DNA of 32,000 nucleotides, taken from positions 830,137 to 862,136 of the forward strand of contig OY969927.1 in assembly GCA_963704655.1 (NCBI GenBank), written 5' to 3'. The notes below the pieces were generated by a model. It saw nothing but the letters and a program-made list of their open reading frames with translations, searched no databases and was not told the origin of the DNA. Positions within the stretch are counted from its first letter, which is position 1; every line of letters begins with the position of its first letter. The translations under genes were made by a program, and so were the position numbers. This document shows, one piece after another, positions 7,418-27,027 of the stretch. The stretch comes from an uncultured Candidatus Babeliaceae bacterium (GTDB lineage Bacteria > Babelota > Babeliae > Babelales > Babelaceae).

Positions 7418-9277
7418 TCAACTAAATGCAGCTGCCTGCCTAATTGGCCTTAAAAGACGATGATAAACATAGGGCTCCCCATCTTTTTCACCAAAGGTAT
7501 ATTCTGCTCTGCAGTTCTGTTCTGCGCCTGTGGTAAGATTTTTGCGAGTAACTTCAGCAATAAGTTCATCTTCCGCCTCTGAAGAACCATCTTTCATAAA
7601 AGGAACAAGCTCCCCCACATATTGAATAACATAATCAAGCATCTGGGCAAAAGTATGATGCTCTATGGTACTTTTTGCCAATTTCATCGCTTTTTTACCT
7701 TGTCCCTGCCTTTTTAAAATACGTTCATGATAACGAAGGCCCTTAATTTCTGCATAATTACGATTAAGATCCGCTTTTGCCTTAACAATAAGCTCTTCAT
7801 CTTGCTGCGGGTCCTCGATAACAAATATTTTATTTATTGGATCAATTTTACTCACAGAGCTACCATCATCTACTTTGAAATTGTTGTTCCATTCTTTTGT
7901 GGTAATAGCAAATGGATCTTGCTCAGGCACTTTTGCAAATTGGCTAGAAGATTCGCCTTGCGTAACTAGCGCAGGCTCTTCAAGAGTGGCCTTTTCTTTG
8001 CCTTTTTTTGATTTAGTTTTTTTCTTTTCTTCTTCTTGCAATAATTGCTGTTCTGCCCGCTCGGCTTTAATCTTTTTTATTGCTGGAAATAACTCATCCG
8101 TATCTAAATATATATCATCAAACTTATTCTTAGACTCTTCTATGAGCTTGAAACCTTCATTTTCATTTTTATTTACACCAATACCAAAAAGGCGCATGTA
8201 CCCGCGCGTTAAAATTACAGATCTTTGCGTGTTGTCAGTATCATTATAAATTTTTTTGAAATACTCTTGTGCTTTTGCCTCATCTTTTTCAACACCAAAC
8301 CCATAATGATATGCTATGGCTAGTTGCAATAGACCAATCGGCAGAATATCTATTTTGTTTGCTTCCGCTTGTTCAAGTATACGGATACCCTCTTGTTGTT
8401 CACCTTGTGTAATAAGTATCGTGCTATATAAAAATGCTGCTAAGTAATCTATTTTTGCCAGCTCTTTAAGCGATCCTTTTGCAGCTTGAGTATCGCCAAC
8501 TATTTTTTTAGTCCATATTAGGCGCGCAATATGCGCCTTACCGCGTGCGCTATTTGCTTTCTCAAAATATTCACGGGCCTTAACTATGTTCGGTTTATGA
8601 TCATTAAAGCCTTTTTCAGCCAAAAGGCCCAATCCAATGCATGCCAATTCGTAATTGTGAAAGGATCGAATATGCTTTTCTGCAGGTAAATTTATAACCC
8701 TTAAAAACAAATCATGCGCTTTTTGTAAATCTTGTGGTATAACTTCATTTCCTTTGAAAAACTCAACAGCTAAATTGTAAATCCCCAGGGGATTATTTTT
8801 TGATGCCAATTTTTGATAATACTCAACAGCTGTTTTAACATCTTTTGGACCACCCTTCCCTTCATTTAAAAGCTTGGCTAAATTGCTCATCGCATCATCT
8901 TCATAAGCAGTATGCATATCAATTGCTACTAGATAGTATTTTCTAGCCCTTCTATAATCTTTATTTTCTTGATATTCAAATCCTAGATTATAGTTTTGTT
9001 CTAGAAATCCATGCGCTACAGCTTCAGACATATATCTTAATTTCTTATCTTTATCATTTTCTTTTATAGCCAAATCAGCCAAACGATTATAAGCATCAGG
9101 AATCCGATCACGCACCTGAAGAAGCATTCTTTCCGCTTCTGGCAAACTGTTATTACCCGCTATTAACATAGTCGCAAAATTATATATATATTCAGGATTG
9201 GCATCTGGGCCCGGATATCTAAAAAGTGCTGTGATTGAAGTAAAAGATAAAACTAGCAATACGATTAAATAGTTCAT
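7418..9277 (-). CDS. Secreted Sel1-repeat (SLR/TPR-like) protein with a Lys/Glu-rich linker and a conserved unknown C-terminal domain
   Basis: 619 aa with a signal peptide. It has multiple Sel1-type repeats (A..YY..A......A.YNLA..Y..G.GV.KD...A). It is colinear with the paralogue at 25111..27027. Confidence 0.85.
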   Translation of the reverse strand: MNYLIVLLVLSFTSITALFRYPGPDANPEYIYNFATMLIAGNNSLPEAERMLLQVRDRIPDAYNRLADLAIKENDKDKKLRYMSEAVAHGFLEQNYNLGFEYQENKDYRRARKYYLVAIDMHTAYEDDAMSNLAKLLNEGKGGPKDVKTAVEYYQKLASKNNPLGIYNLAVEFFKGNEVIPQDLQKAHDLFLRVINLPAEKHIRSFHNYELACIGLGLLAEKGFNDHKPNIVKAREYFEKANSARGKAHIARLIWTKKIVGDTQAAKGSLKELAKIDYLAAFLYSTILITQGEQQEGIRILEQAEANKIDILPIGLLQLAIAYHYGFGVEKDEAKAQEYFKKIYNDTDNTQRSVILTRGYMRLFGIGVNKNENEGFKLIEESKNKFDDIYLDTDELFPAIKKIKAERAEQQLLQEEEKKKTKSKKGKEKATLEEPALVTQGESSSQFAKVPEQDPFAITTKEWNNNFKVDDGSSVSKIDPINKIFVIEDPQQDEELIVKAKADLNRNYAEIKGLRYHERILKRQGQGKKAMKLAKSTIEHHTFAQMLDYVIQYVGELVPFMKDGSSEAEDELIAEVTRKNLTTGAEQNCRAEYTFGEKDGEPYVYHRLLRPIRQAAAFS

Positions 9278-9483
9278 ATATTATCCCTAAACAATAAATG
9301 CAGAGTTTTTATATCTTTCCTATTTAATCATTTAAATGCATTTACAGTCTATAAACGATGAAATTATCATGAGAAGCCCTTATAAAAACCCTTGAACAGC
9401 TGCAGGCTCTTGGCAAAGATCAACTTTAAGCCTTTTTACGCCATTTATTTTTTATTCAATTTATTATATAATAAGCCATATAT

Positions 9484-9558
9484 GTGCCCAGCCTTCGCTT
9501 ATCCACGCCATCGGGCTTGGTAAGTTATGCCCGGCACAGCCATAGCTTCCAGCTGGAT
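9484..9558 (+). other. Degenerate tRNA-like / att-like remnant upstream of tRNA-Arg
   Basis: GTGCCCA (9484-9490) equals the tRNA 5' acceptor strand. GGCACAGCCA (9533-9542) resembles the acceptor 3' strand plus CCA. CCATAGCT-TC-CAGCTGGAT (9540-9558) matches tRNA positions 5-21 apart from a 2-nt insertion. No intact cloverleaf could be drawn. Confidence 0.3.
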
Positions 9559-9592
9559 CATCCAGCTTAAAACAGATATCCTTGATAACAAT

Positions 9593-9669
9593 GTGCCCAT
9601 AGCTCAGCTGGATAGAGCAACGGATTTCTAATCCGTAGGTCGTAGGTTCGAATCCTACTGGGCACACCA
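9593..9669 (+). tRNA. tRNA-Arg (anticodon UCU), CCA encoded
   Basis: Hand-folded cloverleaf: acceptor GTGCCCA/TGGGCAC, D-arm GCTC/GAGC, anticodon stem ACGGA/TCCGT with loop TTTCTAA (anticodon TCT), T-arm GTAGG-TTCGAAT-CCTAC, discriminator A, then CCA. 77 nt. Confidence 0.93.
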
Positions 9670-11124
9670 ATTTCCAGTTTTTGCAGTTTCCATCACCACC
9701 CCAAATACGGGTTTAAGCTCCACGTCGATCTTTCCATCATTATAAGAACAGTTGGATGTTAAGAGCTCAATTATTCTTCTTTTAGCTGCAGCATTTCCAT
9801 TTTTAAACAGCTCAGCCGCATTTTTCGCAAGTTCGATGATAAAGCGTGCATTTTCAAGATATTGTGTATCTGCCTTTTGAACAGCCAATAATTTTGTTAG
9901 CAGTTCTTCTTTTTCTGCCGACCATTTTTGAGAATTGGTCTTCCAGAATTCTTCACTGATTTTGCCATCGAGCTTATCTAAATAGACCTGATCGATTCTA
10001 TTTTGTAATAAGCGTATCTGTTTTTCAAGCTGGGCAACCAAGCTATTATGGTATTCAATTTTGTCTTTTAAACTTTCACGAATTCCCTGTAAAATTATCT
10101 CTTGGTTTTCACTGGATACGTATAGGTTATCAACTATTATCGTAAATTGTTCTTCGATAGCTTCCTGTCGTATATATTCTTTCTTGCAGTTTCCTTTTGA
10201 AGTCGTGCAATAGTAATAAATATACTTATCCTTTTTAAGATCAGCTGTGAGCATACAGCCACATTTGCTGCATTTTATAAGATTGGTGTAGGGAAATATC
10301 CCTTTCTTTGACTTGCTTTTACGTGGATTAAGAAGAACTTCCTGAACGCGTTGAAAGAGCTCCTTGCTCACCAATGGTTCATGGGAAGCATTTTCATATT
10401 TTTTGCCATTCCAGTAAAAAACACCCGTATAGAATTCATTTTTAAGGATAGTTTCAACTTTGCTGGTGTAGAAGTTTTTGCCATTACGATAAACCATCCC
10501 ATCAGCTAACATCTTCTTGCGCAAAGACAGAAGAGAGTATGATCCAGTAGCATACAGTTCAAACATTTTCTTAACATATGGTGCTGTCTGTGGATCTACT
10601 AAGATGACCTTTTTGTCGCCTTTAAAGGTGTTAATATAACCATAAGGAGCTGTTGAAGGGTATGTTCCTTGAGCTGCTTTTTCAGTCATGCCTTTTTTAA
10701 CTTCTTCTGATAGATTATCAATGTGATTTTTAGCCATAAGTGCTTTGATTCCAAAAATGAATTTCTCATTAGAACGTGCTTCTTTGCTAAGTATTACGTT
10801 CTCTTTAACAAGATGAATCCTTATATCACAGTCTTGTACGAGACGTTCCAGTAAGGCGTAATCGAACATGTTTCGTAAAAGTCGATCTGTTTTTTCTACT
10901 AAAAGATGCTTAACTGATCTGTTTTCATCAAAGAAAGCGAGCATTTTATTAAATTCTGTACGCCCAGCCTTTTTTGCAGTTTCTGCGTTAGCAAATTCTT
11001 TTACAATCGTATAATTGTTTTTAGCGGCATATTCATGTAGAACTTTAAGCTGCGCAGGGATCGAGAAACCTTCGACTTCTTGGTCTTTTGATGAAACTCG
11101 GGCGTAGATGACGGCTTTATTCAT
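9655..11124 (-). CDS. Large serine recombinase (integrase)
   Basis: 489 aa with an N-terminal resolvase catalytic domain (AVIYARVSSKDQ with the nucleophile Ser). A central recombinase domain follows, then a Cys-rich zinc ribbon (CSKCGCMLT...YYYCTTSKGNCKK) and a coiled-coil tail. The last five codons and the stop (NWCAQ*) are encoded inside the tRNA 3' end. Confidence 0.9.
   Translation of the reverse strand: MNKAVIYARVSSKDQEVEGFSIPAQLKVLHEYAAKNNYTIVKEFANAETAKKAGRTEFNKMLAFFDENRSVKHLLVEKTDRLLRNMFDYALLERLVQDCDIRIHLVKENVILSKEARSNEKFIFGIKALMAKNHIDNLSEEVKKGMTEKAAQGTYPSTAPYGYINTFKGDKKVILVDPQTAPYVKKMFELYATGSYSLLSLRKKMLADGMVYRNGKNFYTSKVETILKNEFYTGVFYWNGKKYENASHEPLVSKELFQRVQEVLLNPRKSKSKKGIFPYTNLIKCSKCGCMLTADLKKDKYIYYYCTTSKGNCKKEYIRQEAIEEQFTIIVDNLYVSSENQEIILQGIRESLKDKIEYHNSLVAQLEKQIRLLQNRIDQVYLDKLDGKISEEFWKTNSQKWSAEKEELLTKLLAVQKADTQYLENARFIIELAKNAAELFKNGNAAAKRRIIELLTSNCSYNDGKIDVELKPVFGVVMETAKTGNWCAQ
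9660..9669. repeat. Candidate attL core (GGGCACACCA) within the tRNA-Arg acceptor 3' strand and CCA
   Basis: It is identical to the 10-mer at 23815-23824 in the same orientation. Confidence 0.55.
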
Positions 11125-11152: not shown

Positions 11153-11578
11153 TTATTTTTGTTTTGTTTTCATCCAAATAGCTACAATAGCACCTAACGC
11201 CAAAAATGTTAGCCCAAGTAAATCATTATTCGTGCTTTGCCTTTGGATTTGAGCTTGCTCTAGATGTATTTGTTGCCGATAAGCCCTTTCTTCTTGCTGA
11301 AGTCGTTCTTGGTGAGCGATCTCTTCCTGCCGCAATCGTTCTTGGCGGGCAATTTCTTCTTGTTGCAGCTGCTGTTGATAGGCTATTTCTTGCAATTTTT
11401 GTTGGTGCATTAATTCTAATAGTTCGCGTTGTGCGGCCATTTCTCTTTGATGAGCTTGTTCAGCAGTCTTTTGGCGAGCAAGAGCCTCGAGAGCCTCGCC
11501 AATCCCTTTGCCTAGTGCGCTGCCAAAACGCGCTCCCGTACTTTCTGTCGGAGTAAATCCATTAGAAAAATTTGTCAT
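11153..11578 (-). CDS. Gln/Glu-rich coiled-coil protein with a C-terminal TM anchor (tail-anchored)
   Basis: 141 aa with the repetitive stretch QERLRQEEIAHQERLQQEERAYRQQ and the C-terminal hydrophobic segment LLGLTFLALGAIVAIWM. The antisense ORF 11206..11556 is a low-complexity shadow. Confidence 0.6.
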   Translation of the reverse strand: MTNFSNGFTPTESTGARFGSALGKGIGEALEALARQKTAEQAHQREMAAQRELLELMHQQKLQEIAYQQQLQQEEIARQERLRQEEIAHQERLQQEERAYRQQIHLEQAQIQRQSTNNDLLGLTFLALGAIVAIWMKTKQK

Positions 11579-11826: not shown

Positions 11827-12009
11827 TTATTCTTTTGATTCGACTTCTTTTTCATACAACAGACGAATGCCTTCGCAAATAATTGTAGATCGGTCCGTTT
11901 TATTGCGATCACGTAGGCGCTTAATGAAGATCTCATCTAAGAGGTGTTCATCGGTTAACGACATATAAACGGTAGTTTTTGCCTTTTTTGGAACTTCCGA
12001 TTCTTGCAT
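11827..12009 (-). CDS. Putative ribbon-helix-helix (CopG/Arc-like) DNA-binding protein
   Basis: 60 aa with a beta-strand-like TTVYMSL followed by two helices (DEHLLDEIFIKRLRD; RSTIICEGIRLLYEKE). It is divergently transcribed from the Hsp70-like operon across a 183-bp intergenic region. Confidence 0.5.
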   Translation of the reverse strand: MQESEVPKKAKTTVYMSLTDEHLLDEIFIKRLRDRNKTDRSTIICEGIRLLYEKEVESKE

Positions 12010-12180
12010 ATTTTTCCTTAAATAATGAATTTTCTCTTATCTATAATGGCTCAATTAGAGAAAGACGTCAAGTAATTAAACAAGTTAAATGCAAAAACTA
12101 CTTTACATTATGTCATTTTTTGATAATTTTATAATAAGAAATAAATAATATAGCTTAATTAACAAAATCCAAAGATTATT

Positions 12181-12188
12181 GGGGAGGA
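12181..12188 (+). promoter_or_regulatory. Shine-Dalgarno site for the Hsp70-like gene (TTG start)
   Basis: GGGGAGGA ends about 5 nt before the TTG at 12193. Confidence 0.7.
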
Positions 12189-12192
12189 TATT

Positions 12193-14676
12193 TTGTCTAC
12201 TATTGAAATTGGGATTGATTTAGGAACCACAAATTCCTCTATCGCGGTCATTCAACAAAATGCGGTACAGGGCATTAAAAATGCTTCAGGGGAAGAAAGT
12301 ACCCCTTCTGTCATCTACGCTGATAAAAATGGAAACATTGTTGTCGGGTCGAGAGCGAAGAGAATTATGAATAATTCCAAAGAAAACCTGCAAAATAGCA
12401 AGGCCGAAATCAAGCGTTTGATGGGTACAGCAGAGACTATTTTTTTCCCCAACTTGAATAAAAAAATGCTTCCCGAAGAAATTTCGGCAGAAATTCTGAA
12501 AGTACTTATAAATGATGCTAAGAGGAAGTACCCAGGGCTGCTTTTAGATGCGGCTGTGATTACGGTCCCTGCTTATTTTTCTACTGTGCAATCTGAGGCG
12601 ACGAAAAGAGCTGGAGTTTTAGCGGGTTTGAGGCAAGTAGTTCTTCTTCAGGAACCAATTGCCGCAGCAATCGCATATGGTTTTCTTAATCAGAAGAACG
12701 AAAATTGGCTTGTATATGACCTAGGTGGCGGTACTTTTGATGTTGCTCTCGTAGCATTGCGTGATGGATTTCTTACAGTTCTTGCCCATGCGGGAGATAA
12801 TTTTCTCGGTGGTAAAGACTTCGACGCTGCGATCATACAAAATTTAATTCTTCCATCTCTTTCTACCAAAGGTATCGTTTTAGATCCGTCAACTCACTCA
12901 GAAATCTTTAGTTACTTGAAAGAACTTGCTGAATTAGCAAAAATTGAACTTACCACGTGCGAAAGGACAACTATCGATATCGATGTCCAAGTAAATCAAG
13001 CCCAGGTCGAGCATTCTATTGAAATAACAAGGACAGATCTGCTGGAAAGCTGCAAACATTTGCTTGAAAAAACGGTCGACCTTTGCAAGAAGACAATCAG
13101 TGACGCCAATGTGGATCCAGCAACAGTTCAAAGAATTGTTCTTGTCGGTGGGCCGACACAAATGCCAATCTTACAAACTTTTTTGAAAAATTCCTTGCGA
13201 ATCAATGTAGATGGAGGTTTAGATCCTCTACTAGTGGTTGCAAAAGGTGCTGCTATGTTCGGCAATCAAACAGTAATCACTACCCCTGAAGGACAAGGGG
13301 ATATCGACATATCAAACGTTTCCTGCCAGCTCGAAGTAAATTACAATCCAGTAACATCCGATGATGAACAAATTGTCACAGGCAAGGTTTTGCGCATCAC
13401 TGGTGCATCTCAGCCATATTCAGTTCAGTTTGCAAGCTCTGATGACTCCTTTGCGTCTGAAGAGATTCTTATTAAAAATGGCAAATTTATACTGACGCTT
13501 CCTACAGGCAAAAAAGGTACATCATATTGGATTTATGTTAAAGACAATGATGGTCAGCTGATTACTTCAGCTCCTGAAAGCATTCAAATTAATAGAGGCA
13601 TTTCTATCATGGGAGCCCCCCTTCCTTATTCAATTGGCGTATCCGTGATTTCTCTTTCTTCCCACAAAGGTTATGCTGATCCGACCGAGACAATAGAATT
13701 CTTTTTTTCTAAAAATAGCATTTTGCCCCTTAAAGAAAAAAAACGCTTTTATACTCTTGCCGATTTAAGAGCAGGATCCTCCGAAAATGCTCTCCCTATT
13801 TGCATTTATGAAGGCGAATCTCTTATCACAAATCGAAATACTTTAGTCTGCCATTTGGCAATCACAGGAAAAGCAATTTCTAAAGATTTGAAAAGAGGCA
13901 CCCCGGTCGACATCACAATTGAAGTTAATGAATCAAGAGAGTTGAGTGTGATGGCCTATCTTCCGGATTCTGATATTACCCTTAATGCAAGAGAAACTTT
14001 GTATTTTGATGCTGCTAAAATTGACGAGGTAAAGAAGGATTTTACAGAGCAGGTAACACGCTCAGAATCCATAGCTGCATCTGCAGGGCCAATAAATGAA
14101 ACCAATGGCATCAAGAATATGATTAAAGATATTCAATCTACTATCGATGACTCAGGATCAGACTCAGATCAGCAAAGAAAGGCAGAAAAACAAGTAAAAG
14201 ACTTGATGATGGCCCTTGATCGAATTGAGGCGAAAACAAAATTTAATAGCAATGTTGCTACTTTCTGGCAAGAATGCCAGGAGCTCACTGATTATCTGGA
14301 AGATTGTAATCCGCCTGATAAACGCACCGAATACGAAGCCACATATAATACTCTTCGTAAAGAAGGATTAATGGCTATATCTAAAGAAGATGCGATATTA
14401 TTAGAGCATATTGTTCAAAAATTGAGTCGACTTAATTTCAGATGTGTGTATAACGATGTTCGTTATCTGACCTCATGGATTAAAGATTTAATAAAACAGG
14501 TGCAGGAAAAGGCCCATCTCCATCCTACTCTTCCAGACTTAATCAACAGAGCCAAAGATGCCCTAGCTAAATTAAATGTAAAAGAGATGCAGGAGCTTAT
14601 TCATGCGCTTGATCCATTTACGGAGGAAGAAGGAAAGCATCAGGTTCGATTTGTGAAGTCGGGAATTACGTTATGA
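12193..14676 (+). CDS. Atypical Hsp70-family ATPase (NBD + ~110-aa insert + SBD-beta-like domain + long helical tail)
   Basis: 827 aa with Hsp70/actin-fold motifs GIDLGTTNS, EIKRLMG, VITVPAYF, EPIAAAIAYG, VYDLGGGTFDV and VLVGGPTQMP. An SBD-like segment is present (ALPICIYEGES...KRGTPVDITIEVNESRELSVMAYL). The stop overlaps the next start (ATGA). Confidence 0.88.
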   Translation: MSTIEIGIDLGTTNSSIAVIQQNAVQGIKNASGEESTPSVIYADKNGNIVVGSRAKRIMNNSKENLQNSKAEIKRLMGTAETIFFPNLNKKMLPEEISAEILKVLINDAKRKYPGLLLDAAVITVPAYFSTVQSEATKRAGVLAGLRQVVLLQEPIAAAIAYGFLNQKNENWLVYDLGGGTFDVALVALRDGFLTVLAHAGDNFLGGKDFDAAIIQNLILPSLSTKGIVLDPSTHSEIFSYLKELAELAKIELTTCERTTIDIDVQVNQAQVEHSIEITRTDLLESCKHLLEKTVDLCKKTISDANVDPATVQRIVLVGGPTQMPILQTFLKNSLRINVDGGLDPLLVVAKGAAMFGNQTVITTPEGQGDIDISNVSCQLEVNYNPVTSDDEQIVTGKVLRITGASQPYSVQFASSDDSFASEEILIKNGKFILTLPTGKKGTSYWIYVKDNDGQLITSAPESIQINRGISIMGAPLPYSIGVSVISLSSHKGYADPTETIEFFFSKNSILPLKEKKRFYTLADLRAGSSENALPICIYEGESLITNRNTLVCHLAITGKAISKDLKRGTPVDITIEVNESRELSVMAYLPDSDITLNARETLYFDAAKIDEVKKDFTEQVTRSESIAASAGPINETNGIKNMIKDIQSTIDDSGSDSDQQRKAEKQVKDLMMALDRIEAKTKFNSNVATFWQECQELTDYLEDCNPPDKRTEYEATYNTLRKEGLMAISKEDAILLEHIVQKLSRLNFRCVYNDVRYLTSWIKDLIKQVQEKAHLHPTLPDLINRAKDALAKLNVKEMQELIHALDPFTEEEGKHQVRFVKSGITL

Positions 14677-16490
14677 ACATCCAGCTACCGCAGGTTTTGA
14701 TTAGAAATTCATTCAATATACTAGGCCTTTCTTCTTCTGCTACTTTAAAGGAAATTAGAAAAAGAACTCAGCAACTTTTACAACTTGCAAAAATTGAAGA
14801 GATGCAAAAGTTTGATGCTGATATCGGGCATGTCTGTGAATTTCGAAATGAGAACGAAGTTCGGCTTGCAATGGAAAGAACATCGAGCGTCAAGGAACGC
14901 CTACGGGAAACCTTTTTTTGGTTCGATGACCATAATATAGAAAATCAGAAAGCCATTGCCCTTATTTCGCAAGAGAATTATCGTGAAGCTATAGCTATCC
15001 TCGAAAAAACGAATGCTGCAAGCATGGATTGGTTAGAGCATAAGAACTTAGCCCTGGCTTTGATTTTCCAAGCCTTTGCTTCCTCGGATCTTAGTAGTTT
15101 TAGTCACTCATTAGAGTTATGGAAACGAATCGTAGAGTCTGAAGTTTTTTGGAAGTTCTATGAAAAAAATTATATGCTTCATGATGAGTTTGGAACGTCT
15201 ACATTCTTATTTCAGGAATTTAGAAGCTCAATTTACGAATCTTTATCCGCAATGACAGTTTCTTTCTATCATCAAACTAAAAATCCTGAAGCCATAGGCA
15301 TTTATTTTTCTGAATTCGGTCAAATAGAAAAATCTATAGACTGTGAGGTTATTCAGCCAATCGTGACTAAGATTAAAAAAGAAATAGAAGACTTAGAAAA
15401 AATAGCTTCAGAATCGAGCAGCGATGCGAGCTTGATAAAGCAGGCTCTAGAAAAAATTCATAAATACTTTGTGAAACTGGATCAATTTAAACTCTTCGAA
15501 TATTCGCCATTAACTATCCTAAAAAATGACTCTGCTGAAAAATTACGATCTATTTCTATTGATATCTATAATCAGAGTGAGAATGCTGAGTTAGCCTCAT
15601 TGTTCCTTGATCAAAGTGCAGAGCTTGCTATTTCTGATGTAATTGTAAGAAAGATTGAGTCTGACAAAAAAGTGATAAAAAACAATGAATTATGGGAGGC
15701 AATTTCTACCAGGTTCAATCGAATAAAAGAATTAATCGCAGAGAAAAAAATCGAAGAAGCTAAAAGTGTTTATTACGATTTGGACAATGAACTGGCTAGG
15801 CAAAATAACGGGTCATCTAAAGATACTAGAATCGTTCTGCTTATTCGCCTTTGCTATCAATTGATGGGGAAGGGACATGAACTTTTCAATAAAAAAAAGT
15901 TTGGTATCAAGATTCTTGCGATTGGCGCTTTTTTAAATCGGCAAAATCATAAAGATGCGATACATATTTTTGAGTATGTAATTGAAATATTGATGAATAA
16001 AATCTCTATATTAAGTTTTATAGATATTTACAATGACAGATCTTATCTCTTAAAAGAAATAGAAAATATATCAAACTCTCTAGAAAATTGTGAACTTTCT
16101 GATTTAATAAATGAACATGAACCGTACTTAAAATCACTAGAAATGTTTGCCGATGGGCAAGAGAATGAGGATACGCAAGCTGTAATACATGTGCTAGGTT
16201 TTGCCATATACTTTAGCATTTTGTATCGCAGGATTCGTGGTATTATGCAAAGAAAAATGTGGCAATGGGTAGCTTGTGGAACGGTAATTGCCTTCTATTT
16301 CTTAGTAATTATGAATAATGACAAGTGCGAATCAAAAATTGAGAAAGCTTTAACCTACGAAGAAAAAAGTATTATTGAATATTTGCAGGAAAATAGCCCG
16401 GAAGTACTTAAGAATATTAGAAGGGAGGGTTATTCTGATAAACAGATAGCCCAATATGCTTTAGACCAAATAGCGAATGAGAAAAAATGA
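14673..16490 (+). CDS. J-domain-like (HPD-less) helical protein with two C-terminal TM helices
   Basis: 605 aa. The N-terminus, NSFNILGLSSSATLKEIRKRTQQLLQLAK...VKERLRETFFWFD, resembles J-domain helices I-IV but has no HPD tripeptide. A long alpha-helical middle follows. Hydrophobic segments AVIHVLGFAIYFSILY and WVACGTVIAFYFLVIM lie at about nt 16176-16316. It has ATGA overlaps with both neighbours. Confidence 0.7.
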   Translation: MNIQLPQVLIRNSFNILGLSSSATLKEIRKRTQQLLQLAKIEEMQKFDADIGHVCEFRNENEVRLAMERTSSVKERLRETFFWFDDHNIENQKAIALISQENYREAIAILEKTNAASMDWLEHKNLALALIFQAFASSDLSSFSHSLELWKRIVESEVFWKFYEKNYMLHDEFGTSTFLFQEFRSSIYESLSAMTVSFYHQTKNPEAIGIYFSEFGQIEKSIDCEVIQPIVTKIKKEIEDLEKIASESSSDASLIKQALEKIHKYFVKLDQFKLFEYSPLTILKNDSAEKLRSISIDIYNQSENAELASLFLDQSAELAISDVIVRKIESDKKVIKNNELWEAISTRFNRIKELIAEKKIEEAKSVYYDLDNELARQNNGSSKDTRIVLLIRLCYQLMGKGHELFNKKKFGIKILAIGAFLNRQNHKDAIHIFEYVIEILMNKISILSFIDIYNDRSYLLKEIENISNSLENCELSDLINEHEPYLKSLEMFADGQENEDTQAVIHVLGFAIYFSILYRRIRGIMQRKMWQWVACGTVIAFYFLVIMNNDKCESKIEKALTYEEKSIIEYLQENSPEVLKNIRREGYSDKQIAQYALDQIANEKK

Positions 16491-17560
16491 TAAAATTTGC
16501 CAAACCATCATTTCCGCCTGGATGGATTTTGCCTGACGGAGCGAAGATTTTAAAAAGAATCGATAAGCAAGAATTTGCTGAAGTGTTTGAGCTGAATACC
16601 GGAGAGTATCTTTATTTATTTCATGAAGAAAAAATTGCAAAAAAACTCAAAAGCCGCGGAATTTCACATGAAATCTATTTTATTAGCGGTGCAAAAGCTA
16701 TTGGGAAAAAATATTCTGACCATAAAGATGGTGATCTTCCAGAAAGGTTGAAAAATATTATCCAAAGAAGAGGGCTAGATGCTATTGCAGGTATGACTGC
16801 ACTTAAGAACACTTTAGTTAGAGATGTTATTCAGCCGTTTCTAAACTGGGAGGCATATGAAAAATATGGCGTTACCCCATCTAATGGTATTCTTTTATTC
16901 GGCCCTCCTGGTTGCGGTAAAACATTTATAGCAAAAAAACTTGCAGAGGCAATGAAAGCTGAGCTTATTGAATTGAGCGAGGGAACCGTTGGTAGCCCTT
17001 ATATTCATGCAACCTCCACAAACATTGTGCAGGCGTTTCAAAAAGCTGCGATGGTAGCTCCATCTGTACTCTTTGTAGATGAAATTTCAGGATTAATGCC
17101 AAGAAGAGATGGACTATCTTCACAAGAGCAATACAGAGAAGCAGAAATCAGCGAATTTTTGATGCAGATGGAAAGCAGTGTAAAGAATAAAGTCCTAGTA
17201 GTTGCAGCAACTAATTTCCCAGAGAAAATCGATCCGGCAATTTTACGTTCTGGGCGAATGGATAAAAGAATCTTTATCTCACCCCCTGATGCAGAAGCAA
17301 GATGCGAATTATTGCACCTGTTTTTAGAAGAAAGACCCATTGATAAAGAAATCGACTTTGAAGAACTTGCCAGGATCACAGAAGGGCTAATTTCTTCTGA
17401 CCTAAAATTAATAGCTAACAATGCTGCCCTGAAGGCGCTACATAAGAATGCATTAATTTCTATGGAGTTATTAGCAGAAGAAGCTTCACAGTTTAAGCCA
17501 TCCTTAACTCAAACTGAACTAAATCGATATCGTGAATTCGAAGGCTACAATAGAGGTTAA
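16487..17560 (+). CDS. Classic-clade AAA+ ATPase (single AAA module) with an unrecognised N-terminal domain
   Basis: 357 aa with Walker A GPPGCGKT and Walker B VLFVDEI. The sensor-1 / second region of homology is VVAATNFPEKIDPAILRSGRMDKRIFISPPD, followed by a C-terminal helical lid. Confidence 0.88.
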   Translation: MIKFAKPSFPPGWILPDGAKILKRIDKQEFAEVFELNTGEYLYLFHEEKIAKKLKSRGISHEIYFISGAKAIGKKYSDHKDGDLPERLKNIIQRRGLDAIAGMTALKNTLVRDVIQPFLNWEAYEKYGVTPSNGILLFGPPGCGKTFIAKKLAEAMKAELIELSEGTVGSPYIHATSTNIVQAFQKAAMVAPSVLFVDEISGLMPRRDGLSSQEQYREAEISEFLMQMESSVKNKVLVVAATNFPEKIDPAILRSGRMDKRIFISPPDAEARCELLHLFLEERPIDKEIDFEELARITEGLISSDLKLIANNAALKALHKNALISMELLAEEASQFKPSLTQTELNRYREFEGYNRG

Positions 17561-18278: not shown

Positions 18279-18680
18279 TCACATATATTTTGGGATTTCT
18301 ACAACAACAACTTTGGTTTCCCCTTTATTTTCTGATTTATCCCTTAAGTTCATCAACCACTTACGATATTTGGGGTCATACAAAGGCATTGTATGCAGAA
18401 CTATCTGCTTATCTAACACCCCTTCTTGAGCAAGGCGTTCACGTCTTGAGCCTATTAATGTTAAGGCTATATCGTAAGCTTTGGCAAAGTATTCTGAGTT
18501 AGCTGGCAAATCATGAAAGATTTTTGGTGACATCATAATGCTAATTGGGAATTCATCTAAGGTAAGCGCATCTGGGTTCTTCGCCCATTCGGCAAACTCA
18601 TCTGCCAATTTTTGATACTCTTCTTCACTTGTAGGTGCTGTACGAAATTTGAGCAATTTATTTTTTTTAGAAGCTGCCAT
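18279..18680 (-). CDS. Hypothetical protein, possibly small-terminase-like (gp3-type DNA-binding)
   Basis: 133 aa. The pattern FAEWAKNPDALTLDEF...SEYFAKAYDIALTLIGSRRERLAQEGVL resembles phage DNA-packaging small-subunit or HTH proteins. The assignment comes from pattern memory only. It overlaps the upstream gene by 14 nt. Confidence 0.4.
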   Translation of the reverse strand: MAASKKNKLLKFRTAPTSEEEYQKLADEFAEWAKNPDALTLDEFPISIMMSPKIFHDLPANSEYFAKAYDIALTLIGSRRERLAQEGVLDKQIVLHTMPLYDPKYRKWLMNLRDKSENKGETKVVVVEIPKYM

Positions 18681-18933
18681 ATGATATCTCCTGGCTATAG
18701 ATTAAATCTTTTAGTGTTCTGTGGCTTTTTCGTATCTCGCTAATTAAGCTACGGTTATGTGTCCGTTCCGCCTTTGCAACTTTGGTTTTATGGCCATGCT
18801 TTTTGGGTATCGCTCCCCCATGGTAATAGCATCTGCCATTTTTCATAGCTGCTTGACGGCACGATAAACCGAAATTACTTCTTGCTTTAGCACCGCATCT
18901 TGGAAGCGATTTAAAATTCATCTTGAAGCGCAT
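18667..18933 (-). CDS. HGGxSTG-type Cys-rich domain protein (mobile-element associated)
   Basis: RCGAKARSNFGLSCRQAAMKNGRCYYHGGAIPKKHG matches the CGAKTRSG..C...AM.NGRC..HGG signature common in phage and plasmid genes. The true start may be Met5. Confidence 0.55.
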   Translation of the reverse strand: MRFKMNFKSLPRCGAKARSNFGLSCRQAAMKNGRCYYHGGAIPKKHGHKTKVAKAERTHNRSLISEIRKSHRTLKDLIYSQEISYGSF

Positions 18934-19919: not shown

Positions 19920-20151
19920 GGTTGAAAGGTTGAACGACTTCATTATCATGTTCAAATTATAATTCTAGCTCTAGGTCGATGGATTGCTGTCGATAAAAGG
20001 CTTGGTTGAAGGGTTGATAAATCTTATTACTCATTTTAAGTATCGATCTTGATCAACCCTTCAGTTTTAATTATTCATTATTAAATAAATATAGCCTATA
20101 GGATGTTTTTTAGGTTGAAACTACATTTCAACTTTTTTCAACAACTTCAAC
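19920..20151. repeat. Iteron-like GGTTGA(A/T) array with a 12-bp inverted repeat; candidate replication origin or operator cluster
   Basis: GGTTGAA occurs at 19920, 19928, 20004 and 20113, and GGTTGAT at 20012. Inverted copies are ATCAACC at 20052 and TTCAAC at 20127, 20137 and 20146. TGAAGGGTTGAT (20007-20018) and ATCAACCCTTCA (20052-20063) form a perfect inverted repeat around a 33-bp AT-rich spacer. Confidence 0.5.
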
Positions 20152-21813
20152 TATTACAGGTTTATAGATCCAATCCTTTCGGTGCTCTTTTTTTTCAAAA
20201 GTTACTCTACCACTGTCGATTAAAGTTTGAAAAATATACTCATATTCTTTAGAACCACCCTTCAACTTTTTTGAGGTAATAATTTGCGCCCACGTAACAG
20301 GTCTTTTTGAAGCAGCAGCCCATTTGCAAAGAGCTTCATGCATTATACGGCACTTCCGTTCATGCTCAGACTCTCCCAATTCTCCCTCAAAAAGCTGAAT
20401 TGTGGACTGTATAGCGCGATGCAAGATCGCAAAAGCAGCCCAGAGGGCTTCCTCGCTTATATCTTTTGTAGTCGGATCTATAAAAAGCTGTATGATCATT
20501 GCTAACTTTAAAAGATACGGACTCCATCTTTTTAAGTATGGGTCTAAGATTTCTCGACTTCGGTCGCTATAAGCTTTTGGCATATCATTGATTTTTTTAT
20601 GCATCGCTTCAAATACTGCTTTTGCAGAGCCTGCAAGAGGATTGAAGACGTAATTGTCACTTATCGCATCTAAAACATCCATTATTTCTGCTTCAATTTC
20701 ATGATCCGTTTTTTCTGTGTGGGCAGGCAAAGCAGGTGGAACTTCTTCTTGATGAGGTGGCGTAAAAATCAAAAAGCGGGCGAAAAATCCACTAGGGATA
20801 TCCGTTATTTTAAGGTTATCTTGAATCCAAGGTAAAGTAGAAACGCCACATATGGAAAAGCAAGGGCGTTCTAATATACAATCGCCCTGTGTTTTGGTTT
20901 TATATCTATAAGATGGTGGAACATCATAAAGTTCGGTGAATATAGCTTTTAAATCATTATTATGGTTTTTATCAAAATTTTGTAACCATGCTCCAAATTC
21001 ACTGGCAAGAATAACTCCTTGATGCCCTTGGCTTAGATGTTCGAGTAGGGCCTCTGCTGTCATTTTATTAGGCAAAATGACGTCTTGTCTTGAAATCGCA
21101 AGTATATCTTCCTCGATCATTTTTTTTTCTTTTGGATCTATTGTTATGCGGAGTGATGCATGTAACTTTTTGATCTGATCAGTTATGATTTTATTTTTTA
21201 CCCAAGCAAGGTTGGCCCCTTTATTAAGTGCCGTGCTCTTAAATTGTCCGCTTTTTGTGATGGATAGTATCCATAAGTTAGGAAAAAGAGTTTGAAAATA
21301 TGGGTATGAAACACGCTTTCCTAAAATAGCAGAGATTGTAGCCATCACAGACATTGTTATCATTATTGGGTGCGCATTTGTTGTTTCGCAAATAGAGAGT
21401 ATATAAGTACTGAGTGGAGGCGGTAGAAGCGATGGAGTAAAACCTTCGCAAGGATCGTCTTTTTTTTGACCAACCACAGACAATTTCTCGAGCTCTAAAG
21501 GTAGAAGATCATTCAAGCCGGCTTTGTCACAGAGTGAGTTAAATTCGGCTTGTTCATTTTCATTTAGCGGATGCGAATCATAAGTATACTCAGCGCCATC
21601 GCCCCAGTACATACATGTTAAGGATTCTTGATTATTTCTTAACGTAACTGATGCCATATACATAGCTGGTTTATTATAAGGTTGGGCTATATATTCGTAA
21701 GTATTACCATCTGGTGTGATCGGTCCATCTATGGCCAGATCATGTTCAGCCATATGTTGTCGACATTCTTCAAATAAATTACGTTTTTTTATGATATAAT
21801 TAAGATTATTCAT
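20128..21813 (-). CDS. DUF3987-like (YfjI-like) replication/helicase-type protein
   Basis: 561 aa. The segment FTPSLLPPPLSTYILSICETTNAHPIMITMSVMATISAILGKRV...NLWILSITKSGQFKST matches my memory of the DUF3987 core with a deviant P-loop. This family is typical of phage-like islands and satellites. Confidence 0.5.
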   Translation of the reverse strand: MNNLNYIIKKRNLFEECRQHMAEHDLAIDGPITPDGNTYEYIAQPYNKPAMYMASVTLRNNQESLTCMYWGDGAEYTYDSHPLNENEQAEFNSLCDKAGLNDLLPLELEKLSVVGQKKDDPCEGFTPSLLPPPLSTYILSICETTNAHPIMITMSVMATISAILGKRVSYPYFQTLFPNLWILSITKSGQFKSTALNKGANLAWVKNKIITDQIKKLHASLRITIDPKEKKMIEEDILAISRQDVILPNKMTAEALLEHLSQGHQGVILASEFGAWLQNFDKNHNNDLKAIFTELYDVPPSYRYKTKTQGDCILERPCFSICGVSTLPWIQDNLKITDIPSGFFARFLIFTPPHQEEVPPALPAHTEKTDHEIEAEIMDVLDAISDNYVFNPLAGSAKAVFEAMHKKINDMPKAYSDRSREILDPYLKRWSPYLLKLAMIIQLFIDPTTKDISEEALWAAFAILHRAIQSTIQLFEGELGESEHERKCRIMHEALCKWAAASKRPVTWAQIITSKKLKGGSKEYEYIFQTLIDSGRVTFEKKEHRKDWIYKPVIVEVVEKS

Positions 21814-25110: not shown

Positions 25111-27027
25111 ATGGACACACACGTAAGGGGATTGGGAATGGTTAATAACGCCTTTAAATTATTAATACCGTTGGTATTATCAGTATTTGCTCCACATGTA
25201 TGCTGCTCTGAAAATAGGGGTCCAGAATCAGAATATGATTATGCGGTATGGATTTTAAATGGGCTTTCAACAAACCCAGAAGCATCTCAGGAAATGATAA
25301 GTAGAGTAGAAAATACATTTTTGCGGACAAGAGATAAATATTCTGACGCGCGCAGAATGTTAATAAAAGTTGCAAGCTTACAAAATGATCCAGATAAACA
25401 GATTCGATATGCTCAAGATTCTGTAGAACACGGAAACCCTGGCGATAACTTGTATATCGCTAGAGCTTATGAGAAAAAAAAGAATTATAAAAAAACCCAA
25501 GAATACCTTGAAAAAACTATCGCATCCGGGAGCACCTATATAAACACAGCTCGCGTCGAGTTAGCTGTATTGCTGTTTCAAGGAAAGGGTGGGCCAAAGG
25601 ATATTTATCGTGCACAAAAATATCTCCAAGATGCAGCCAATGATAATTCTCTTCAAGGTAAATTTAATTTAGCAATGAGCTATGTTAATGGCCCTAAGGA
25701 GCTACCTAAAGATCCTGAAACCGCCTACAAAATCTTGTCTGAGGTAATAAAAATCCCAATTCAAAATATTGAAAAATCTGAAATGGAATATTATTTTGAG
25801 GCATATGCACAGCTAGGATTGATTATTGAAAAGGGGTTTAAAGGTTACAAACCGGATCCAGCAAGAGCATATAGCTATTTTAAAAAATTGCAGGAATTAG
25901 GTAACGGAATGGGCACAGTTCATTGTGCGCGCTTAATCATTTCAAAAAAGGTTCCCGGAGATATCAATAGCGCAAAAGCTGATCTTAAAAAGCTTGCTGA
26001 TGATGGCATGCCTTTTGCAAAATTCATATACAGCTCAATACTCATTTCTGAAGGGCAGCAAGATGAGGGTATCCGCTTGCTGGATGATTCGTATACAAGA
26101 AATCAACAAATTTTACCTGTGGGAATGCTTCAGCTTGCAATAGCCTATCACTATGGCATTGGCGTAGAAAAAGATGAGCAAAAAACGCTGGAATTACTTG
26201 AAAAAATAAATAATGACCCTGATGATAGATGGCGATCTTTATTTCTTGCACGAGCCTATATGCGCTTTTTGGGCTTAGGGGTAAAAAAGGATATTAAAAA
26301 AGTTAATGAACTCTTAGAAAAAGCAAATGAAAAATCTGATGACGTATATTTAGATACGTATCAGTTATTTCCTTCATTAAAAAGTTTAATAGAGGAACAA
26401 GCGCAAAAATTGCTTAAAGAAGAAGAGCTCGAAAAAAGCAAGAAAAAGGGCAAGAAAAAAGCGGTCATTGAGCAAGAGGAGCCTATTTTGGCAGGTGAAT
26501 CTTCGACAGCTTCAACTTCTGGGCAAGAAGCTCAAGAGAGTTTTATAACTATTGCCGAATGGAAGAAGATATTCAAGGCCTCAGATGACGGAAGCTTTGT
26601 AAGCGCCATAGACCCGGTTCTAAAAATGATTACTATTCAAGACCCTCAACGTCATGAAGAGCTTATAGTATATGCTGCAGAAAATAGATTCCGGGATCTC
26701 TCTGAAATTGAATATTTAAAAATTGCCACATGGGCCTTAATAAGGCAGGGAATAAAAAAACCGAAAAAAATCGAACATGCACCTACTGCAAGTCAAGAAT
26801 ATAACCATTCATTTGCAGATATGCTTGACTACGCTATTCAATACGCTGGCCAGTTAGTACCCTGGGTAAAAGCGGGCTCTGCTGACCCAGAAGACCAGCT
26901 GACGGTTGATGTTATCCGCAAAAATACCAAAACGGGCAAAGAATTATCATGCAGAGCAGAATATACCTTTGGCCAAAATGGCGTGTATCACCGACTTTTA
27001 CGGCCGTTAAAAGAGAGAAATCAATAA
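25111..27027 (+). CDS. Secreted Sel1-repeat protein, paralogue of 7418..9277
   Basis: 638 aa, colinear with the 619-aa protein. Shared strings include LQLAIAYHYG.GVEKDE, YLDT..LFP, a Lys-rich linker, ML DY.IQY.G.LVP and CRAEYTFG...YHRLLRP. An alternative start at 25138 (MVNNAFKLL) has an AAGGGGA SD. Confidence 0.85.
   Translation: MDTHVRGLGMVNNAFKLLIPLVLSVFAPHVCCSENRGPESEYDYAVWILNGLSTNPEASQEMISRVENTFLRTRDKYSDARRMLIKVASLQNDPDKQIRYAQDSVEHGNPGDNLYIARAYEKKKNYKKTQEYLEKTIASGSTYINTARVELAVLLFQGKGGPKDIYRAQKYLQDAANDNSLQGKFNLAMSYVNGPKELPKDPETAYKILSEVIKIPIQNIEKSEMEYYFEAYAQLGLIIEKGFKGYKPDPARAYSYFKKLQELGNGMGTVHCARLIISKKVPGDINSAKADLKKLADDGMPFAKFIYSSILISEGQQDEGIRLLDDSYTRNQQILPVGMLQLAIAYHYGIGVEKDEQKTLELLEKINNDPDDRWRSLFLARAYMRFLGLGVKKDIKKVNELLEKANEKSDDVYLDTYQLFPSLKSLIEEQAQKLLKEEELEKSKKKGKKKAVIEQEEPILAGESSTASTSGQEAQESFITIAEWKKIFKASDDGSFVSAIDPVLKMITIQDPQRHEELIVYAAENRFRDLSEIEYLKIATWALIRQGIKKPKKIEHAPTASQEYNHSFADMLDYAIQYAGQLVPWVKAGSADPEDQLTVDVIRKNTKTGKELSCRAEYTFGQNGVYHRLLRPLKERNQ

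Follow-up and report, generated by a model that had tools for sequence, protein, structure and literature searches.

A recurrent gene trio for an Hsp70, a J-like protein and an AAA+ ATPase, carried as mobile cargo in an uncultured Babeliaceae bacterium: a possible protein-remodelling machine

The stretch of DNA analysed here (hereafter, the window) comprises 32,000 nucleotides (nt) of contig OY969927.1 (positions 830,137 to 862,136 of the forward strand; NCBI GenBank assembly GCA_963704655.1) from an uncultured Candidatus Babeliaceae bacterium. It carries three consecutive open reading frames (ORFs) on the + strand, which we refer to as the trio: gene 1 (12193-14676; TTG start) encodes a long, non-canonical Hsp70 of 827 amino acids (aa); gene 2 (14673-16490) encodes a 605-aa protein with a J-like domain, a tetratricopeptide repeat (TPR)-like body and a predicted membrane anchor; and gene 3 (16487-17560) encodes a 357-aa classic AAA+ ATPase with a single module. 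This compact three-gene form spans 5.4 kb. Neighboring genes share an ATGA stop/start overlap at 14673-14676 and again at 16487-16490. Inspection of the letters reproduced these positions, which had been given in a preliminary description of the window made from its sequence, and also confirmed the strong Shine-Dalgarno sequence GGGGAGGA that it had placed before the TTG start (12181-12188, + strand), with a gap of 4 nt. Further upstream of gene 1 lies a promoter-like TTGATA-18-AATAAT element (12120-12149, + strand), a sigma-70-like match at 10 of 12 positions and the top score between 11.5 and 18.3 kb; sigma-70-like matches in this region are not enriched over shuffled sequences, and the promoter call is therefore weak evidence.

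The product of gene 1 matches the Pfam HSP70 model over residues 6-382 (E 2e-84). Alignment with DnaK and HscC places its nucleotide-binding domain (NBD) at aa 1-360 (12193-13272, + strand), where the catalytic residues D9, K74 and E154 are invariant, as is the DLGGGTFD motif. The AlphaFold2 (AF2) model, built with 44 homologues, has a predicted local distance difference test (pLDDT) score of 83 and a predicted template modeling score of 0.73, and Foldseek superposes it on full-length DnaK and BiP with target-normalized template modeling scores of up to 0.80. The substrate-binding beta domain (SBD-beta; aa 481-599, 13633-13989) is supported by both this superposition and the alignment with its counterpart in DnaK; C-terminal to it come helices that form the lid and tail (aa 610-809) and then a conserved terminal SGIT(L/K) motif (together 14020-14673), in which G824 and I825 are invariant in 44 sequences. 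In the alignment with DnaK and HscC, about 105 extra residues separate the NBD from a modified interdomain linker. At this boundary, AF2 secondary structure predicts an all-beta insert with a beta-sandwich appearance (aa 378-467, 13324-13593), which is kept from Chlamydiota to Patescibacteria. The Hsp70 signatures, SBD-beta segment, extra insert and helical tail listed in the preliminary description are all borne out by Pfam, alignment, AF2 and Foldseek, and the gene 1 product is predicted to be a complete Hsp70 with intact catalytic motifs.

It is not, however, a standard family member. Its NCBIfam scores fall far below the equivalog cut-offs (288 bits vs 648/822 for DnaK and 258 vs 708 for HscA). 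V150, Q153 and I156 stand where DnaK has R167, N170 and T173, its contacts to the His-Pro-Asp (HPD) motif of J proteins, whereas HscC keeps R-N-T. All 19 family members in the alignment have V, A or L at the R167 position, and Q153 and I156 are invariant in 44 sequences. Long Hsp70s of this type (823-850 aa) form at least 715 clusters, whose source names are only "Hsp70 family protein" or "DnaK".

No match to gene 2 was found in Pfam, NCBIfam, PADLOC or, by profile, the PDB sequences. Conservation is highest over the first 85 residues, which contain the J-like domain (aa 7-85, 14691-14927, + strand). The J-domain model PF00226 weakly matched 18 of the 43 N-termini in the gene 2 family (best E 0.004; the window fragment is not among the 18), and no other family was matched by more than five of those 43. 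When the gene 2 family was compared by hhalign with a hand-assembled set of ten canonical J domains, the probability was 95% (E 3e-8). The HPD motif is replaced by D-A-D-I in the window and by (D/x)-x-D, after an 8-residue insertion, in the family; its only invariant residue is the Asp, D50. Across the wider family, the N-terminus follows the pattern NAYxILGL..(K/R)EI..R.KEI...LKI(D/E)..P.YD.D....RTE.SVK.A...L.SPK.R..EYFFWF. Profile methods thus agree with the preliminary description of a J-like N-terminus without HPD, and we take this region to be a probable, divergent J-like domain, strict membership in the J family failing on the HPD motif.

The AF2 model of gene 2 is all-alpha (pLDDT 80). 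Its central helices (14937-16157, + strand) are predicted to form a TPR-like alpha-solenoid, for which Foldseek found only generic TPR matches in the PDB, with E values of 0.01 or weaker. Hydropathy and charge counts point to a hydrophobic anchor at aa 501-548 (16173-16316) with one or two membrane segments. Two transmembrane helices had been proposed for this end of the protein. There are indeed two hydrophobic segments (501-517 and 531-548), and the loop between them holds five Lys/Arg residues, but their hydrophobicity is only moderate (Kyte-Doolittle values of about 1.7-1.9) and AF2 renders them as one long helix. Most members of the wider family likewise end in one or two hydrophobic segments. 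A small C-terminal helical domain (AF2 helices 562-601, 16350-16475) with the conserved block LTxEEK..IEYL...GYSDKQIA is present in the chlamydial-type clade only.

Gene 3 matches the AAA model PF00004 (E 8e-33), and its AAA_lid_3 score of 26.8 bits is just below the cut-off of 27.2. Among solved structures, it is closest to the D2 rings of VAT, p97 and Cdc48. An alignment of 17 orthologues shows conservation of Walker A (GPPGCGKT), Walker B (DE), sensor-1 (ATN) and the LRSGRMDKR arginines (both in the second region of homology). In pore loop 1, all orthologues keep the aromatic and hydrophobic residues but have His in place of the classic Gly (Y-(I/V)-H). The N-terminal domain (aa 1-95, 16487-16771, + strand) carries a conserved KPxxxxG...YLYLF motif in alignments, and its profile found nothing significant in the PDB. 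The best PADLOC match, IetA (E 3e-33), covers the generic AAA core only. The Walker, sensor and arginine motifs are those expected of a single-ring, classic-clade (Cdc48/PAN/FtsH-type) AAA+ protein with intact active sites, in line with the earlier view of one classic module behind an unassigned N-domain.

The three genes behave as one unit. At least 17 distinct loci (denoted by L numbers below) from several phyla contain the trio as a syntenic, co-evolving set, and the neighborhood check called for by the preliminary description thus finds it outside this genome. In every locus fetched, the orthologues of genes 1 and 2 are adjacent and in the same order, with the gene 3 orthologue next in line everywhere except in a Tn3-borne copy (L023-L025), which has no AAA+ gene and in which a resolvase gene follows gene 2. 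The chlamydial-type loci retain the 4-nt overlap between genes 1 and 2, and most of them also retain the one between genes 2 and 3. Recurring gene order and overlap indicate that chance does not account for the arrangement. Pairwise identities of the three proteins are strongly correlated: Mantel r is 0.94-0.98 for the full set of loci and 0.46-0.83 when only the chlamydial type is compared (p <=0.02). Gene 2 evolves fastest, with 45-65% identity to the window copy, whereas genes 1 and 3 mostly retain 72-81% (66% in the alphaproteobacterial L005).

Only 48 clusters contain close homologues of gene 2, and their sources are environmental Chlamydiota (among them Protochlamydia naegleriophila and Rhabdochlamydiaceae), metagenome-assembled genomes (MAGs) labeled "Verrucomicrobiae" and one alphaproteobacterial MAG. 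A scan of 185,579 species representatives detected the chlamydial-type pattern in just 13 loci. The MAG CAYWKW01 has two diverged copies of the whole trio (L006 and L016), and in L007 gene 1 is broken into three ORFs (7522-10004), indicating a decayed copy. Patchy distribution, mobile context (described below) and duplicate and decayed copies lead us to reject a housekeeping core chaperone. No conserved fourth gene was found 3' of the trio in the chlamydial-type loci. In several chlamydial loci, an ORF resembling a P-loop kinase (IGLPGSGKST, with a faint AAA_18 match) lies just 5' of the trio on the same strand (L001 6823-7266, L009 6810-7313 and L019 6758-7261); the window trio has no such ORF. 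In another locus, from a Chlamydiales MAG, a 770-aa protein with a canonical DnaJ domain and HEAT-like repeats is encoded 2.3 kb downstream of the trio (L022 15256-17568).

In the window, the trio sits on an island whose left edge is a tRNA-Arg(TCT) gene (9593-9669, + strand; ARAGORN). A large serine recombinase, the integrase, is encoded next to it on the - strand (9655-11124; Pfam Resolvase, Recombinase and Zn_ribbon_recom; PHROG 95 integrase, E 4e-78), and its stop region overlaps the 3' end of the tRNA gene at 9655-9669. The tRNA 3' end, CTACTGGGCACACCA, read as its reverse complement, supplies the final codons of the integrase gene (W-C-A-Q-stop), and it is thus tRNA sequence that closes the integrase frame at this boundary. 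A search of the window for another copy of this 3' end, which would map the right border of the island, found none, as is expected for serine integrases. The integrase that abuts and overlaps tRNA-Arg fits the proposed tRNA-integrated element. The description of the element as satellite-like found no support, as genes for capsid hijacking or packaging were not recognized.

The element also encodes a DUF3987 primase/helicase (20128-21813, - strand; Pfam E 5e-23, PHROG DNA primase E 8e-23). From the tRNA gene to about 23.6 kb, all ORFs of at least 100 aa outside the trio are on the - strand with one exception, a short + strand ORF (11206-11556) that is antisense within a - strand ORF. The large backbone genes are all on the - strand, and the trio is indeed transcribed opposite to them, as had been stated. 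GrpE, a canonical DnaJ and ClpB, all reported as missing, were absent from the island ORFs scanned.

Several smaller genes surround the trio. A 60-aa ORF (11827-12009, - strand), taken from the ORF list and without a family match, is divergent from the operon; judged by eye only, it is possibly a small DNA-binding regulator of the ribbon-helix-helix type, and genes for XRE-type helix-turn-helix proteins hold the equivalent position upstream of the trio in L003, L027 and L036. A 141-aa ORF (11153-11578, - strand), which has no family match, contains three tandem 33-nt repeats (11287-11391) encoding a Q/E-rich coiled coil and ends in a strongly hydrophobic C-terminal segment. An 88-aa Cys/His-rich ORF at 18667-18933 (- strand) has a homologue that adjoins the trio in L012 (9649-9918, - strand), from a Parachlamydiaceae MAG, which suggests that the two carrier elements may be related. 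Sel1-repeat proteins are encoded on both flanks of the island (7418-9277, - strand; 25111-27027, + strand). The E. coli hscC-djlC-djlB locus likewise holds Sel1 genes, ybeQ and ybeT, which is probably a coincidence.

Other copies of the trio are carried by unrelated backbones. While the window copy is on a serine-integrase island, others were found on islands with a tyrosine integrase, AlpA and a primase; on ParA/Rep plasmid-like contigs; in a Tn3 cluster with ArdA and a type I restriction-modification (R-M) system, where the gene 3 orthologue is absent; and on a conjugative element with a type IV secretion system (T4SS). AbiEi/AbiEii genes are directly beside the trio in three independent contexts, and further neighbors include HipA, RHS/Imm11, NotI with a methyltransferase, DpdF, PsyrT, PD-Lambda-5_B and the MADS components mad3 and mad8. 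The trio is thus exchangeable accessory cargo rather than a core chaperone, and the view of it as cargo of mobile elements, often next to defense or toxin-antitoxin genes, holds across these loci. We tentatively read it as a non-canonical Hsp70-AAA+ remodeling machine used in conflicts among mobile elements, phages and hosts, and give this reading slightly less than an even chance. A role in defense or abortive infection is suggested through guilt by association.

The same neighborhoods bear on two other explanations. According to the first, the trio would serve the life cycle of the carrying element, whose replication initiator, recombinase or transfer apparatus it would remodel, much as DnaK/DnaJ and Clp ATPases remodel such machinery for lambda, P1 and Mu. 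The trio is almost always near integrases, primases, ParA/Rep or T4SS genes, which fits this idea; yet the backbones are unrelated to each other (serine and tyrosine integrases, Tn3, plasmid-like contigs and a conjugative element), L027 and L028 have no clear element backbone at all, and the window trio faces away from the backbone genes, as is typical of exchangeable cargo. A membrane anchor is also not expected for a protein that remodels a replication initiator. We regard a life-cycle role as very unlikely.

According to the second, the trio would be a counter-defense or host-takeover tool that helps the element to become established by unfolding or extracting defense or membrane proteins of the host. 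This would fit the association with mobile elements and the anti-restriction gene ardA in the same Tn3-borne cluster, and an unfoldase paired with a substrate-selecting Hsp70 could neutralize proteins without any toxin. Sequence gives nothing to separate counter-defense from defense. The trio lies beside defense genes and not among early-expressed leading-region genes, and we see only a slim chance that counter-defense is its function.

The window trio is the compact form of a much larger family. An exhaustive profile search identified 493 representative clusters of gene 2 relatives (E <=1e-3), mainly in Patescibacteria (Taylorbacteria, Uhrbacteria and others) and Omnitrophota. In four loci from these phyla (L027-L030), the gene order is a 160-179-aa ORF, an Hsp70 of 837-844 aa, the J-like protein, up to two small membrane or coiled-coil proteins (one of them Yip1) and an AAA+ protein of 356-369 aa, followed in two of the four loci by DUF6804. 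The Hsp70 and AAA+ proteins are orthologues of genes 1 and 3 (587-629 and 284-296 bits, respectively; HscC scores 159). The ORFs upstream of the Hsp70 gene (L027 3949-4470, L028 3959-4477, L029 3915-4454 and L030 3995-4477) encode an N-terminal hydrophobic segment, and in three of the four the best Pfam match is GrpE (PF01025), at E values of 1e-4 to 5e-4 that are below the cut-off. Alignment of these ORFs by hhalign with a single E. coli GrpE gave the expected register and was not significant (E 0.1). The upstream ORF may encode a candidate GrpE-like, membrane-anchored nucleotide exchange factor.

More distant versions occur on two plasmids. On Haliscomenobacter hydrossis pHALHY02 (L035, NC_015512.1, 8.5-16 kb), the module consists of a J-like "CFI-box-CTERM" protein, a coiled-coil protein, an 841-aa Hsp70, a fusion of a Ser/Thr kinase to an AAA+ domain and a TerB protein; it directly adjoins the BREX genes brxL and pglZ, and the fused kinase is closest to MAD6 of the MADS system. 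On Pseudomonas hygromyciniae pSDM007 (L034, NZ_CP070507.1, approximately 99-104 kb), genes for a 706-aa TPR protein, a 117-aa ORF and an 833-aa Hsp70 are followed by IS66. The 117-aa ORF looks GrpE-like by eye, genes of the PAPS-reductase family and a RelE/ParE toxin gene lie nearby, and no AAA+ gene is present.

Another explanation is that the trio is a mobile module for protein quality control or stress tolerance, which extracts, unfolds or refolds damaged membrane proteins or aggregated host proteins and has spread for the tolerance it confers. The transmissible heat-resistance and protein-quality-control islands of Enterobacteria and Pseudomonas offer an analogy. All components come from proteostasis families, no toxic effector domain is present, and the Patescibacteria and Omnitrophota operons contain the candidate GrpE-like protein and often have trypsin-like proteases nearby. 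Against this, the normal J-domain interface is lost on both sides, which argues against general chaperoning with host partners; the distribution is very patchy, with pseudogenized and truncated copies; the trio lies repeatedly beside Abi, toxin-antitoxin, R-M and BREX genes; and one distant variant has the kinase-AAA fusion. On balance, we judge a quality-control function to be unlikely, though deserving of serious attention.

If the trio is a conflict-related remodeling machine, as we favor, it could work as one self-contained, membrane-tethered unit. The C-terminal anchor of gene 2 would hold this protein at the inner membrane, and its J-like domain would recruit, and probably activate, the gene 1 Hsp70 through a private interface, while its TPR-like body might select clients or dock the tails of its partners. 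The loss of HPD in gene 2, taken together with the loss of R167, N170 and T173 in gene 1, suggests that the pair is probably insulated from the host DnaK and DnaJ. Gene 1 would capture exposed polypeptide segments in an ATP-driven manner, and a hexameric ring of gene 3, possibly docked via the conserved gene 1 tail or its own N-domain, would then thread and unfold or extract the captured proteins. The possible outcome is that invader proteins are removed or unfolded at the membrane, or that abortive infection is triggered. In this scheme, we infer the physical interaction of the three proteins, their membrane location, the type of client and any protective effect.

Several observations weigh against a conflict-related machine. 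A nuclease, protease, NADase or other toxic effector could not be recognized in the module, and no PADLOC model matched genes 1 and 2. The Asp of the HPD motif is kept (D50) even though its usual partner, R167, is gone, and the AF2 confidence for the J-like N-terminus is low (pLDDT 45-68 over residues 1-80). The association with defense genes is qualitative only. The larger Patescibacteria operon, with its candidate GrpE-like protein and nearby trypsin-like protease, resembles ordinary proteostasis, and two of the Patescibacteria loci, L027 and L028, lack a clear mobile-element backbone. Finally, no relatives of gene 2 were found in PLSDB plasmids, INPHARED phages or IMG/VR, which leaves a phage-encoded origin unsupported.

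A broader proposal is that the trio and its larger relatives represent a previously unrecognized, widespread class of mobile immune systems that uses chaperones alone; we consider it doubtful, though well within reach. In such a system, the Hsp70 and the J-like anchor would sense foreign or misfolded proteins at membrane sites and the Cdc48-like unfoldase would be the effector, and no nuclease, NADase or pore toxin would be needed. For bacteria, the trio would add a further Hsp70 class to DnaK, HscA and HscC, comprising hundreds of sequence clusters. It would also be a natural experiment on how an Hsp70 system is insulated and coupled to an unfoldase, with the interface rewritten on both partners and an AAA+ protein dedicated to them. 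The trio is a testable candidate for a defense or conflict system without a conventional toxic effector, and it is carried across phyla that are hard to study, such as environmental Chlamydiota, Patescibacteria and Omnitrophota.

No named system matching the trio was found in PADLOC, Pfam, NCBIfam or the literature searched, and the earlier statement that it is not a named defense system agrees with the absence of a PADLOC model or a published description. The preliminary description had listed what would speak against it: a trio confined to this genome, single-copy core chaperones as homologues, a gene 2 unrelated to J domains that does not vary with gene 1, and a clear match to a described system. 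None of these was found. The literature searched on Hsp70 in anti-phage and defense settings yielded only unrelated conflict systems that contain Hsp70, which are discussed at the end.

The general chaperone system DnaK-DnaJ-GrpE shares with the trio the catalytic residues of the NBD, the SBD-beta and the helical lid of gene 1 and the similarity of the gene 2 N-terminus to J-domain profiles, and in the Patescibacteria versions also a candidate GrpE-like gene upstream. However, gene 1 is about 200 aa longer, owing to the beta-sandwich insert and the extended tail, and lacks R167, N170 and T173. Unlike DnaJ, gene 2 has no HPD motif, Gly/Phe region, zinc finger or client-binding domains, and is TPR-like and anchored instead. 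GrpE is missing from the window, and an AAA+ protein is coupled to the pair of Hsp70 and J-like protein.

In the E. coli HscC-DjlC/DjlB system, a specialized Hsp70 gene likewise lies beside a gene for a J protein with a C-terminal membrane anchor, and a resemblance to it had been suggested. The resemblance is one of architecture only: HscC has 556 aa, keeps R-N-T and scores 159 bits against gene 1, compared with 587-629 bits for the Patescibacteria and Omnitrophota proteins; DjlC and DjlB keep the His-Pro of HPD (as HPE), and hhalign gave DjlC a probability of 0.2%, that is, no profile similarity to gene 2. Orthology is therefore rejected. HscC-DjlC also has no AAA+ partner and is chromosomal rather than mobile.

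J-like membrane proteins without HPD are known from mitochondria, where Pam16 works with Pam18, mtHsp70 and Mge1, and from plastids and cyanobacteria (ARC6/Ftn2). Like gene 2, they combine an HPD-less J-like domain with a tethered protein that has an Hsp70 partner at the membrane. They differ in being organellar or cyanobacterial, not mobile and without a known AAA+ partner, and their likeness to gene 2 is limited to the J-like fold. ARC6 has been described as J-like (10.1101/2024.01.08.574726).

Two comparisons concern gene 3. IetA of the Gao_Iet defense system, which pairs this AAA+ protein with the protease IetS, is also of the classic clade. However, the trio has no IetS-type protease and Iet has neither an Hsp70 nor a J-like partner; the NCBIfam IteA score of 105 bits against a cut-off of 510 and the lack of a protease gene in the operon lead us to reject membership. 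The nearest functional analogy is the bi-chaperone disaggregase, in which an Hsp70/J pair acts with the threading AAA+ ring of ClpB/Hsp104. Here, gene 3 differs in having a single classic-clade module within 357 aa, no M-domain and no second ring, and the coupling seen in the trio is at the level of the genes.

Divergent Hsp70 domains also occur in predicted conflict systems, including CnuD of CoCoNuT, the GAP1-N2 GTPase systems and a DnaK-like protein linked to an EACC1 protease (PMC11090510, PMC7159879, PMC12642450), and they set a precedent for the conflict-related reading. The GAP1-N2 systems carry Hsp70, GrpE and a DnaJ-FNIII protein. The partners in these systems are McrBC GTPases, TRAFAC GTPases or protease-effector modules, whereas the trio combines its Hsp70 with a J-like anchor and an AAA+ protein. 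Furthermore, CnuD has degenerate ATPase motifs and the EACC1-linked DnaK-like form has no lid, whereas the Hsp70 of the trio is predicted to be complete and catalytically intact.

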